A stretch of 64,000 bases of DNA from a virus (taxonomy: Duplodnaviria > Caudoviricetes): IMG/VR virus record IMGVR_UViG_3300028888_001628, positions 91,975-155,974 of that record; one strand, 5' to 3'. Shown in pieces: positions 6,564 through 59,100 of the stretch. The notes beneath the pieces are model-generated. The model was not told where the DNA came from. It saw nothing but the letters and a program-made list of their open reading frames with translations, and searched no databases. How positions within the stretch are numbered: position 1 is the stretch's first letter; each line of letters begins with the position of its first letter. The translations under genes were made by a program, and so were the position numbers.

Positions 6564-6878
6564 GTGATAATTATGCCACTAAATAACAGAGAGTATATAA
6601 AGAATATTAAAGACATTATGCTGTGTCTTCAGACTATGGTAAAGACTAGATTCGGTAAGAAGACAAAGATTATATTTACAAGTGGAAAGTATAAAAGTGC
6701 ATACATGAGTTTTTACAAAGCACCTAGAGTTTGGCAGTTTTACTGTGAAGATCGTGTGAGTAATTATATGCTGTATCTTGTTAAAGATGATAAAGTTATT
6801 AGAAGTGAGATGATTAGAAAATCAGAGTTGATAGAGCATTTTTATACTAAAATATCACACTTGTTCACGTATATGTAA
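6564..6878 (+). CDS. Hypothetical protein
   Basis: ORF with gagg SD. Confidence 0.55.
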   Translation: MIIMPLNNREYIKNIKDIMLCLQTMVKTRFGKKTKIIFTSGKYKSAYMSFYKAPRVWQFYCEDRVSNYMLYLVKDDKVIRSEMIRKSELIEHFYTKISHLFTYM

Positions 6879-6893
6879 TATTGGAGATTTAGT

Positions 6894-7904
6894 ATGGATA
6901 ATATTGAAGATTTAAAAACTGATGCTAGTATAGCATATATACTCCAAAAACTTAAAGAAACTAAACCTGTTAAACAGCCTGAGGTTGAAACAGATACTGC
7001 TGATAAATCAGACAAAGACAATTCTCTAATAATCCCAGTAAAAGATATTCCAGTAAATAGTTTTAGTAAGAAAGAGTTTCCAGCAAAAGAGGTACAATTA
7101 GAGAAAGAACCAGAGACTCATGAGAATTCTTTTGCAGACAATAATATTCTTCCATGGTTTTCAAAAAGTGATAAAGATTTAAAGCTTATTCACTATCTGT
7201 CACTAAATGACTCAGGTTATTTAGTGCATAATAGTATTAAAGTTAGTAGTCCTGCTAATGATATAGCATCTTTAAAGCTTAAGAACAATTATGTCTGTGA
7301 CGTTGATTATTACAAGTCAAGACATTATGTGTTACACGTAGCTCATTTCGAAAGTAATTTCCCATACAGTAAAACATTCACACCTACTGATGAAAGTTTG
7401 CAGACAACTAATGAATCAGCAGAAAATCCAGAGTTAGTAAAAGTATCACAAGATGATGTTTGTAAAGAAGTTGCACAGAATGAGAAATATTTCCATTATG
7501 TAGTATTTACAGATTTGGGTATTGCTGATTTCATTGTTAGACAAGATTATCTTCCATTTCCATACGGTGAACCTGATTTAAATAAATGGTTTGAAGAATC
7601 GTCAAACTATGTTTCAATAGAAATGCCTAACTTTAAAGCTAACCCACATATTGTGTCTGATAAAGCAAATTCTATTAGAGATATAAAGCATGACATTATA
7701 ACAATGCACCGCCCTGGTATTATTACTTTAGATTCAGTTGATAATAATGATTCGAGTTATAGTATTCATCTTAAATTAAAGGATGAGTTTAATTTTATTC
7801 AGTTAAATAGAATTCTTGGTTGCTTAAAATATTATTCTCAAAATGAATCAAAGTCATTAGATAGTTTTAAGAGATTCATAAATAAATACTTCGATATAGA
7901 ATAG
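6894..7904 (+). CDS. Hypothetical protein
   Basis: 336-aa ORF with ggag SD. Confidence 0.65.
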   Translation: MDNIEDLKTDASIAYILQKLKETKPVKQPEVETDTADKSDKDNSLIIPVKDIPVNSFSKKEFPAKEVQLEKEPETHENSFADNNILPWFSKSDKDLKLIHYLSLNDSGYLVHNSIKVSSPANDIASLKLKNNYVCDVDYYKSRHYVLHVAHFESNFPYSKTFTPTDESLQTTNESAENPELVKVSQDDVCKEVAQNEKYFHYVVFTDLGIADFIVRQDYLPFPYGEPDLNKWFEESSNYVSIEMPNFKANPHIVSDKANSIRDIKHDIITMHRPGIITLDSVDNNDSSYSIHLKLKDEFNFIQLNRILGCLKYYSQNESKSLDSFKRFINKYFDIE

Positions 7905-53161: not shown

Positions 53162-53246
53162 TGGACAAGAGAGGATTCGAACCTCTTTCTCCGCATGTTT
53201 CTATGCCTCGCGAGTGGTGTTTTGCCCTATTGTAAACTACTTGCCC
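53162..53246 (-). tRNA. tRNA-like RNA with aberrant anticodon arm
   Basis: Intact acceptor GGGCAAG/CTTGTCC, D arm and T arm AGAGG-TTCGAAT-CCTCT; no canonical anticodon stem-loop. Confidence 0.7.
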
Positions 53247-53260
53247 TAAGAAACTTTAAA

Positions 53261-53332
53261 TACCCACGCCCGAATCCGAGTCGGGACTAATAGTTTAGAA
53301 GACTATTGTGCTTCCAATTACACCACGCGGGC
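53261..53332 (-). tRNA. tRNA-Arg(TCT)
   Basis: ATAGT-CTTCTAA-ACTAT; atypical T loop CTCGGAT. Confidence 0.85.
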
Positions 53333-53369
53333 AGAAGGCGATTGCTCTATCCAATTGAGCTACTGGAGT
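53333..53369 (-). pseudogene. 5' half of a second tRNA-Arg(TCT)
   Basis: ACTCCAG-TA-GCTCAATTGGATAGAGC-A-ATCGC-CT-TCT, then the next tRNA begins directly. Confidence 0.7.
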
Positions 53370-53511
53370 AAAATACCCATATTACTATGGGCTGCCATAA
53401 CCCTAAGAGACCGTGTACTTAAGTCTCATACAGGAATCATGGACTTTATTGAATCTCATGTTTGAGCATTATTCAAATCACAGAATAAGAGGCTTAGAGA
53501 TTTCTCTAAAA

Positions 53512-53833
53512 TAATCTCATTGCGTGCTGTTACACCAAAGTGGAGTACAATCCTTACCAGTTACGGGGTGATTGTCTACTTCAATCGGAGTGACCACTCA
53601 CCTATACACCATTACACTTCACTCTGTCAATTTGATGTATAGCCTGATCCGCCTATTTACTCATTCGTTAAATTTTACTTTAACTGATTTGTCATGGTGC
53701 AGATCATTACACCAGAGGGCGATGTAGCTTTAATGCGTTTCCCATCTTGTTAGATGGTGCAATCAGGATATGCGAGTGGCGATTGCCACACTCATTAAGG
53801 ATGGACGCTTTTAATCCAACCACAATAAGATTA
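53512..53833 (-). ncRNA. Structured ncRNA containing a split mimic of 23S rRNA H43/H44 (GTPase-associated centre)
   Basis: 13-bp terminal stem; GTTGGATTAAAAGCGTCCATC at the 5' end, GT-GTAACA-GC at the 3' end; many internal helices. Confidence 0.75.
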
Positions 53834-53834
53834 A

Positions 53835-53911
53835 CGGGAAATGAAAGAATCGAACGTTCATCTAACGGCCCAAACTAAGGCCGGTTATTTTACCAATTAA
53901 ACTAATTTCCC
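53835..53911 (-). tRNA. tRNA-like RNA with extended, non-canonical anticodon arm
   Basis: GGGAAAT/ATTTCCC acceptor, D and T arms; anticodon arm ACCGGCCT-TAGTTT-GGGCCGTT. Confidence 0.7.
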
Positions 53912-53912
53912 A

Positions 53913-54107: not shown

Positions 54108-54169
54108 CAGTTGTCAAAGAACGTTTTAAATTATAGATATATTATACATTGGAAAGTTTGAAATGTAAA
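54108..54169 (-). promoter_or_regulatory. Sigma70 promoter and rrn-type boxA of the stable-RNA operon
   Basis: TTTACA(54169-64)-17-TATAAT(54146-41); CGTTCTTTGACAAC at 54123-54110. Confidence 0.8.
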
Positions 54170-58077: not shown

Positions 58078-59100
58078 TTAGACAAGTTTCCAAACTAATT
58101 TCGAGTAATTTTTATTATCATATATTGCAAACATTACATGAGGATATTTACATGATTTAAAATATTTAGCTGCGTCAGCGCGTGACTCAAAGTTATCTTT
58201 GTATTCTGATTTACATAATGACTCAATTTTCAAGAATTCATTTTCTAACTCATTTACAATATCATCAAAGTAAAGTAATGCTTCTTCTGATAAATTATCA
58301 GCGATCTTTGATCGTAGTTTATCAGCATTATTATTTATAAGAGACTCGAGAACTAGTTTCTTAGTAAGATACTGTTTTGCAGTATGAGCTTTGAAATATT
58401 CTTTGAATTTTAATTTGAGTCGAAAACCATTAGAGAATTTTATTACAAAACCTTCACGATTAGACCCATCTGAATCTAATCGAAATTGCAAGTAGTCTTT
58501 CACATTATCGAACTTATCTGCAGTTTTAAACAAATCTTTGTAATCAGAAATATCTGATTCTTTTCCTGACTCATTATCTATCACTGCTAATAAGAATAAG
58601 TCGTCAGTATCACCGTAATCTACAACTAAATTTGAATCTTGTCCGTGTGGGATAATTATCTCAAACAGATAAGATTTTGATCTGTCTAATAAATGAAGTT
58701 TATCAGCATATTTAGAATAAAGTAATTTATTAGCATGGTTAGCTTGATCTGATACAAATGAACCACGAGTTGCTACGTATGGTTTACCATTTGCGAAATA
58801 CAAGATTCCAAGTGAGCCATCTAATTTTTCATATACTTCAAATGGAAGATCTGGAATATCTTTACAGTCATTTACGAGTTCTTCATAATTGTAGAACTTT
58901 TCAAAAGATCGTGCAATTATATTATAGTCTTTATCACAAATAACACCGCGACAGAATTCAGTTGCTTCATTCCACACGTGCTCGCCTGAAGCTTTCTTTG
59001 TATAATTGTAAATATACAGATCGTACTCAGGATGTTTATTTACAGAGATGTACCCTTTATCGATCATCTCTTTAACTAGTTCAATATGTGGGAGTTTCAT
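58078..59100 (-). CDS. RNA ligase, T4 Rnl1-like
   Basis: YNY, CRG, F.KF.N, EKLDGSLG (motif I), ATRGSF, FEII, EGFV, KLK. Confidence 0.9.
   Translation of the reverse strand: MKLPHIELVKEMIDKGYISVNKHPEYDLYIYNYTKKASGEHVWNEATEFCRGVICDKDYNIIARSFEKFYNYEELVNDCKDIPDLPFEVYEKLDGSLGILYFANGKPYVATRGSFVSDQANHANKLLYSKYADKLHLLDRSKSYLFEIIIPHGQDSNLVVDYGDTDDLFLLAVIDNESGKESDISDYKDLFKTADKFDNVKDYLQFRLDSDGSNREGFVIKFSNGFRLKLKFKEYFKAHTAKQYLTKKLVLESLINNNADKLRSKIADNLSEEALLYFDDIVNELENEFLKIESLCKSEYKDNFESRADAAKYFKSCKYPHVMFAIYDNKNYSKLVWKLV

Follow-up and report, generated by a model that had tools for sequence, protein, structure and literature searches.

We find that a 322-nt locus on the minus strand of a phage genome almost certainly belongs to a large, phage-specific family of non-coding RNAs that mimic the GTPase-associated centre (GAC) of 23S rRNA. 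The locus lies in a 64-kb stretch of DNA (hereafter called the window), which comes from a 156-kb IMG/VR virus record judged to be 68% complete. As read from alignments, the ends of each member are a self-closed copy of the 23S GAC, comprising the top of H42, H43, the 1082-1090 junction and H44, and an accessory domain of variable size is grafted into each member at about 1090/1091. The pattern of conservation argues that the family is under strong selection to retain both the GAC sequence and its helices.

Viruses are known to mimic tRNAs, and leaders of cellular mRNAs are known to mimic rRNA sites. A functional centre of the ribosome copied by a virus as a free-standing RNA is apparently undescribed, as we found no earlier account of such a copy; Rfam 15 holds no description of the family, and we found none in the full-text literature. 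The family is large and sharply conserved. Its unannotated presence in cultured phages of Pseudomonas, Aeromonas and Xanthomonas already makes it amenable to bench experiments.

Architecture of the element and its locus

The original prediction had read the locus as H43 and H44 rebuilt around a large insert, inside a tRNA operon. Checking this reading, we found all of the listed sequence features on the minus strand, each where it had been placed, and the E. coli 23S sequence used there for the comparison agreed with rrlH of MG1655, our 23S reference. The reading itself held: the homologues described below keep the ends, their closing helix covaries, and a covariance model of the family (R1) recognises the GAC of E. 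coli.

The longest open reading frame in the element is at most 51 aa, and its predicted MFE is -95.3 kcal/mol (z = -3.5 against shuffles). As predicted, it sits within a cluster of tRNA genes, with six to seven of them on the same strand in no more than 1.3 kb, and a tRNA-like gene adjoins it with a gap of 0-1 nt. The anticodon loop of this tRNA-like gene has 8 nt, and ARAGORN assigns a four-base anticodon to it. The promoter-like site listed in Table 1 is a consensus match only and lies about 64 nt ahead of tRNA-Tyr, the first tRNA. A search for LSU rRNA came up empty both for the window and for the entire viral record, and the flanks of the element are tRNAs. Because no rRNA sequence was found beyond the GAC, the locus is not a large-subunit rRNA gene or a fragment of one. 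Most large proteins of the source virus record are without a PHROG match.

Other features of the neighbourhood were also noted. A hairpin just 3′ of the mimic (53452-53501, minus strand) gave a sub-threshold match to abiF RNA (25.9 bits, with a gathering score of 37). A tRNA-like sequence at 53162-53246 (minus strand) scored 38.6 bits with Rfam and was not called by ARAGORN. At 53334-53369 (minus strand), we noticed an apparent tRNA 5′ half, consisting of the acceptor, the D arm and the anticodon stem up to a TCT anticodon, which continues directly into a complete tRNA-Arg(tct) at 53260-53333. A T4 Rnl1-type RNA ligase is encoded at 58078-59100 (minus strand), 4 kb upstream of the tRNA/mimic cluster. 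RtcB is also encoded on a related phage contig (L003:3862-5046), so these phages possess enzymes of RNA repair.

Using the alignments, we assigned the parts of the element in rRNA numbering by homology (Table 1). The order is P1, a non-canonical pair, H43, the 1082-1090 junction, P2, a 4-nt linker, H44, three junction nucleotides and the 3′ strand of P1, with the insert at the equivalent of 23S 1090/1091. The window copy forms 11 P1 pairs and 4 P2 pairs, as expected of a family member. The 1082-1090 strand does not run into H44 to give a three-way junction; it is broken by P2 and the 242-nt insert, and the junction is therefore four-way. The non-canonical pair, which replaces G1056-A1103, is U-G in the window copy and C-A, A-A or U-A in other members. 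The 1057-1081 pair is missing in the subgroup of the window copy, and the junction there is one base pair shorter. The terminal stem had been described as 13 pairs long. Nucleotides 1-13 and 310-322 do pair (11 Watson-Crick and 2 G-U pairs), but the two innermost pairs are likelier to be GAC junction pairs, given the homology with relatives that have a longer junction.

The H43-like segment (nt 14-34) is identical to E. coli 1059-1079 at 17 of 21 positions, just as had been claimed. It carries the compensatory change of C1064-G1074 to A-U, a pair at which the family also varies, and a further compensatory pair, G13-C35, which the original prediction had not listed, stands in place of U1058-A1080. 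The conserved nine-nt loop and the U-U mismatch of the stem are both there, and the loop retains the equivalents of A1067, A1069, A1070, G1071 and C1072. The H44-like hairpin has a 2-bp stem and a six-nt loop of the rRNA type, with A at the 1095 position, so that the adenines predicted at both 1067 and 1095 are indeed present in the window copy. The second H44-like pair is U-G in the window copy and C-G in the relatives. With this U-G pair, the changes of G1068 to A and of A1073 to G, and a junction 1 nt shorter, the window copy is among the more diverged members of the family; it is also one of the largest.

Table 1. Features of the mimic RNA and its locus in the window; 23S numbers are E. 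coli equivalents assigned by homology
Feature	Position	Strand	Basis or remark
Phage GAC-mimic RNA, 322 nt, non-coding	53512..53833	-	Model R1, end-to-end match
tRNA-like gene adjoining the 5′ end of the element	53834..53912	-	ARAGORN and Rfam tRNA, 46.3 bits
Promoter-like site preceding the tRNA/mimic unit	54141..54169	-	11/12 match to sigma-70 consensus
Terminator-like hairpin downstream of the RNA	53375..53392	-	Consensus scan; consensus match only
P1 5′ strand, nt 1-11, counterpart of the top of 23S H42	53823..53833	-	Pairs with 53512-53522
H43-like hairpin, nt 13-35 = 23S 1058-1080, including the A1067 position	53799..53821	-	17/21 identity to 1059-1079
Junction strand, nt 36-44 = 23S 1082-1090, 1 nt shorter than in rRNA	53790..53798	-	Near-invariant in the family
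P2 5′ strand, nt 45-48, insert-closing helix	53786..53789	-	Pairs with 53540-53543
Structured insert, 242 nt, specific to the nine-member subgroup	53544..53785	-	RNAalifold
P2 3′ strand, nt 291-294	53540..53543	-	Pairs with 53786-53789
4-nt linker and H44-like hairpin (nt 299-308 = 23S 1091-1100, including the A1095 position)	53526..53539	-	
3′ junction nucleotides, nt 309-311 = 23S 1101-1103	53523..53525	-	Collinear with E. coli 23S in the model alignment
P1 3′ strand, nt 312-322	53512..53522	-	Pairs with the P1 5′ strand

Relatives, conservation and covariation

Searching with the window copy directly yielded no relatives: blastn against 50,697 phage records gave no match, an exact 22-mer from its H43 had no match in viral contigs, and the nearby RNA ligase led to none in viral contigs. 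A 17-mer from the insert gave three matches (L014-L016), which were dismissed as chance. The first full-length homologue was reached via RNA-ligase homologues in a large protein database and look-ups of their contigs. This homologue, on a metagenome contig, is 87% identical to the window copy; tRNA-Leu and tRNA-Arg flank it at distances of 1 and 3 nt. A copy in IMG/VR, found by conserved words from the alignment, is 78% identical. Relatives sharing the core only were found too, and their inserts are shorter and quite different.

Running a degenerate core pattern over a metagenome collection, we obtained 45 loci. In every case, the 3′ H44-like motif follows the core at a variable distance, and the 13 nt after this motif complement the 13 nt that precede the H43-like segment. 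BLAST with a short member as the query revealed unannotated copies in four cultured phages, namely Pseudomonas phages pf16 and UNO-G1W1, Aeromonas phage 4_4572 and Xanthomonas jumbo phage XacN1. The pf16 and UNO-G1W1 copies each lie between two tRNA genes, and a tRNA-Met gene is found shortly downstream of the copy in 4_4572. The junction strand of the cultured-phage copies has the length of 23S 1081-1090 and nearly the same letters; over E. coli 1055-1089, the sole difference of the XacN1 copy is one compensatory pair. A pattern made for the second (full-length) type of junction found 17 further viral contigs.

In total, 62 different members of 95-403 nt were collected from viral and metagenome contigs with a GC content of 32-62%. 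About three quarters of the member loci contain tRNAs, which are all on the strand of the element and often abut it or lie 0-25 nt from it. Clustering the ORFs within 6 kb of the RNA, we found no shared protein family beyond close relatives. No uL11 gene was found in the source record or in five complete phage genomes that carry a member.

The first core pattern had zero matches in 185,579 prokaryote species (one genome each). The second core pattern matched five contigs of the same species genomes, four of which are genuine archaeal 23S genes. A 281-nt mimic (L101:3540-3820, minus strand) lies on a 3.9-kb contig with 13 tRNA genes in an 'uncultured Thermoplasmatales' MAG; this contig is probably mis-binned phage DNA.

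A few individual members are worth recording. One metagenome contig has two mimic copies about 1 kb apart (L048:5615-5794 and 6655-6917, minus strand). A 395-nt member (L040:7453-7847, plus strand; identical in L052) carries the sarcin-ricin loop core, 12 of 12 nt, in a hairpin of its own. This loop is absent from the window element and occurs only in L040/L052, that is, in one of the 62 different members. A bL12-like domain (Pfam PF00542, 36 bits) is found at 96300-96383 (plus strand) in the record of UNO-G1W1, one of the phages with a mimic RNA.

Comparing the window copy alone with E. coli 23S rRNA by BLAST, we obtained no significant match, so the case for GAC likeness is carried by the relatives. 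Fourteen members are identical to E. coli 1059-1079 at all 21 positions (E ~1e-7; BLAST with a 2.9-kb search space), and several of these also match 1090-1100 at 11 of 11 positions, in the same order as in 23S rRNA. Model R1 was made from 12 short members, none of them from the subgroup of the window copy. It matched the window locus with 77.8 bits over model positions 1-169 of 169, which was its sole match in the 64-kb window, and the true E. coli GAC (nt 1045-1114) with 27.4 bits; the E-values of about 1e-20 and 1e-6, respectively, are rough. R1 also finds the copies in cultured phages. Scanning Rfam, we found nothing at gathering score, nothing relevant at E<=10 for the window copy and nothing relevant at E<=1 for short members; the element thus belongs to no named family there, GOLLD, ROOL and LSU rRNA included.

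Covariation was tested on a MAFFT alignment of 24 short members, with the structure named in advance. In this alignment, 84.7% of the cells are paired, whereas shuffles give 68.3%. The structure attains a covariation score of 0.43; shuffles score 0.13, with none of 500 as high, and slid partners score 0.10-0.15. Both-sided changes occur in 10 of 11 P1 pairs and in 3 of 4 P2 pairs. In the model alignment of 67 sequences, which is biased towards the structure of the model, the pairing is 88.4% versus 66.7%, the covariation score is 0.52 versus 0.15, and all four P2 pairs covary. For the closing stem, 10.6 of 13 positions pair with their true partners, compared with 7.2 (s.d. 0.27) when partners are shuffled among sequences. 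The comparison of homologues thus came out in favour of the original prediction, with GAC-like ends and a terminal stem that are conserved and with strong covariation.

The equivalents of G1059, U1060, G1062, G1063, U1066, A1069, G1071, C1072, C1075-C1079, A1084, A1085 and U1090 are invariant in all 67 sequences. Positions 2, 3 and 6 of the H44-like loop are near-invariant, and the 3′ junction C pairs with an invariant G, being G-C in 65 of 67. The 1064-1074 pair is C-G in 50 sequences, A-U in 14 and G-C in 2. The A1067 equivalent is A in 61 sequences and G or U in the other 6, so not every factor contact is preserved. At position 1061, which faces an invariant A, members have U, G or A; natural GAC sequences are likewise free to vary there (PMC6239185).

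The insert and a competing pairing

Folding the nine members of the subgroup with RNAalifold, we obtained 84 pairs, 16 of which show compensatory changes; the insert takes the form of a long helix with two branches and a terminal hairpin. The insert stems that the original prediction had listed exist, and several of them covary in the subgroup. GAGTG/TACTC had been taken to close the insert. Covariation in the family instead backs nt 45-48/291-294 (GUGG/CCAC) as the closing helix. With P2 in this role, the preceding GAGU is free as the equivalent of 23S 1087-1090.

In the subgroup, the junction GAGUG is able to pair with an internal CACUC, and this fold has a lower computed energy than the family-consistent one. 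For the nine-member consensus, the values are -66.4 when unconstrained (with GAGUG/CACUC) and -44.8 for the family-consistent fold. If real, the GAGUG/CACUC pairing would sequester the A1088 equivalent and disrupt the GAC fold. The family covariation favours P2 rather than this pairing, and the two may represent alternative states in the subgroup.

The insert is highly variable in sequence and size between family members. A terminal hairpin module at its 3′ end recurs in 21 of 71 collected family sequences, including the cultured-phage copies, and consists of a tetraloop of the GNRA or UMAC kind atop a covarying 3-bp stem. This module may buttress the fold. A likeness of the recurrent module to 23S nt 1682-1706 was judged to be chance, as the arrangement of stem and tetraloop differs. 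Placed at 1090/1091, the insertion may hinder uL11 binding or leave it intact. The natural variants, from the 95-nt minimal to the 400-nt ornate, offer a ready mutational series for the much-studied GAC fold.

Comparison with known systems and possible function

Compared with the 23S GAC (E. coli nt 1051-1108), an autonomous domain that binds uL11 and thiostrepton, the mimic is collinear in its helices and junction strands, shares the invariant nucleotides of the H43 loop and stem and of the H44 loop, varies at the same position, 1061, and covaries at the same pair, 1064-1074. The alignment of the true E. coli GAC to the family model likewise runs from one end to the other. Unlike the GAC, which is part of 23S rRNA, the mimic is free-standing (95-403 nt) with its own closing helix, has an extra domain at about 1090/1091 and, in the subgroup, a junction 1 bp shorter, and is encoded by phages in tRNA arrays.

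The leaders of r-protein mRNAs, such as the L10 leader and the L1 site in the L11 operon mRNA, are likewise off-ribosome copies of protein-binding sites of rRNA. However, they are cis-regulatory parts of cellular mRNAs and copy only part of the site, whereas the mimic is a separate stable-RNA gene in phages, has no regulated ORF and copies a whole domain near letter for letter. Phage tRNAs and tRNA-like RNAs share with the mimic their place, strand and implied expression and processing, and they too are copies of RNAs of host translation. The mimic differs from them in copying a piece of rRNA. Such a piece cannot replace its ribosomal counterpart, which leaves it with roles in mimicry or as a decoy only. 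Pseudo-ToxI of phage PhiTE, which neutralises a protein, is likewise a phage RNA imitating a cellular RNA; it imitates the antitoxin RNA of one defence system, whereas the model of the mimic is a universal ribosomal domain (PMC3475682). ROOL and GOLLD are also large, structured, phage-associated and near tRNA genes, but they lack an rRNA-like core, and the Rfam models of both have no match to the element at E<=10.

We propose that the RNA would be co-transcribed with the tRNAs and excised by tRNA-processing enzymes as a stable RNA, and we infer this mode of release from the 0-1 nt gap to the tRNA-like gene. The core would then take the autonomous tertiary fold of the GAC and be bound by host uL11, with which the RNA is probably loaded; the GAC is known as an autonomous fold recognised by uL11 (PMC6239185). 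The free RNA or RNP would compete, off the ribosome, for a ligand that normally reads the ribosomal GAC. The ligand we favour would be an effector that serves host defence or bacterial warfare by acting on translation at the GAC, for which a Tre23-like ADP-ribosyltransferase or a nuclease are candidates. The RNA would thus serve as a decoy sparing the ribosomes, by the same logic as proposed for phage tRNA arrays against tRNA-targeting defences. We think it quite probable that the RNA acts off the ribosome by competition. A defence or toxin effector is possible as the ligand that matters, with the doubt somewhat outweighing the confidence. The account as a whole, namely a GAC mimic bound by uL11 and acting as a decoy for a GAC-directed effector, is our best explanation, one that we stop just short of calling probable.

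A decoy would face tens of thousands of competing ribosomes, which counts against this reading, and we know of no GAC-directed anti-phage effector, Tre23 being a type VI secretion toxin. What makes us favour the decoy is the company that the RNA keeps, which includes phage tRNAs, odd tRNA-like RNAs, the Rnl1-type ligase and, in relatives, RtcB, together with the existence of enzymes that attack exactly the GAC site, as Tre23 ADP-ribosylates H44 at 1095-1098 (PMC8661411). The mimic RNA might in turn point to host effectors attacking the GAC.

Other readings were weighed against the decoy. RelA depends on uL11 and the GAC, and the RNA could act by titrating free or exchanging host uL11, so that ribosomes would be left without uL11, RelA would not be activated and the stringent response, which otherwise shuts down the translation machinery during infection, would be blunted. 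The conserved core is the uL11-binding domain, and the spread of the family over very different hosts fits a universal host target. As no phage uL11 gene was found, any bound uL11 would be the host's. RelA activation on the ribosome is the subject of PMC5829649. We nevertheless consider titration of uL11 unlikely, because uL11 already in ribosomes would need to leave them by exchange, the RNA has no linked gene related to (p)ppGpp, and the member bearing the sarcin-ricin loop is left unexplained. That member, joining copies of both rRNA elements of the factor-binding site, is what speaks for a different use of the RNA, in which it would bind EF-G, EF-Tu, IF2, RF3 or a related GTPase off the ribosome, with or without uL11, and either withdraw the factor or present it to a phage partner. 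The modest affinity of factors for the isolated GAC counts against such a trap or platform. Withdrawing elongation factors would harm phage translation too, and the sarcin-ricin copy is found in one of 62 different members and is absent from the window. We regard the capture of GTPases as improbable, even though the A1067 and A1095 equivalents are mostly retained, one member-carrying phage encodes a bL12-like domain, and isolated rRNA pieces of the factor site bind EF-G and IF2 in vitro (PMC3496166).

The element travels with tRNAs and abuts them, and its insert is highly variable. These observations would also fit an element with no mimic function at all, either a decaying piece of captured host 23S rRNA or a structured spacer that aids processing of the tRNA transcript. 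We find this very hard to reconcile with GAC-like positions that are invariant over 67 sequences, from phages of 32-62% GC, while the closing helices covary, since a decaying fragment would lose these positions and a spacer would not need them; the two copies on one contig argue against it as well. Leaders of mRNAs are known to mimic rRNA (one example is the Rfam L10 leader), and the element could accordingly be a cis-acting leader in the style of r-protein operons, an rRNA-like mRNA site bound by a protein to control the downstream gene. This reading is hardly credible: many loci have tRNAs on both flanks, we found no downstream ORF conserved among members and no r-protein gene nearby, and the leader families of Rfam gave no match.

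Returning to the decoy, a broader formulation can be offered. Phages from many environments may make a natural 'ribosome in pieces', that is, a stable copy of the GAC, joined in rare cases by the sarcin-ricin loop, as a countermeasure to a new class of ribosome-directed host effectors or as a means of turning off the uL11-dependent stringent response; we put this forward as a possibility of which we are less than half convinced. In 'ribosome-in-pieces' work, isolated rRNA pieces of the factor site reportedly bind factors. If the formulation is true, it would add a new category of viral RNA mimicry, of rRNA rather than tRNA. Binding of the RNA to uL11 or to a GAC-directed effector, if it occurs, would reveal a new layer of phage-host conflict over the translation machinery.

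A minor observation concerns the smallest copies. In the minimal members of 95-96 nt (L083:2243-2337, plus strand; L089:8881-8976, minus strand), the insert is a single hairpin. The contigs of both carry tRNAs with CTA and TCA anticodons, which are suppressor-like, and this hints at stop-codon recoding in the phages concerned.
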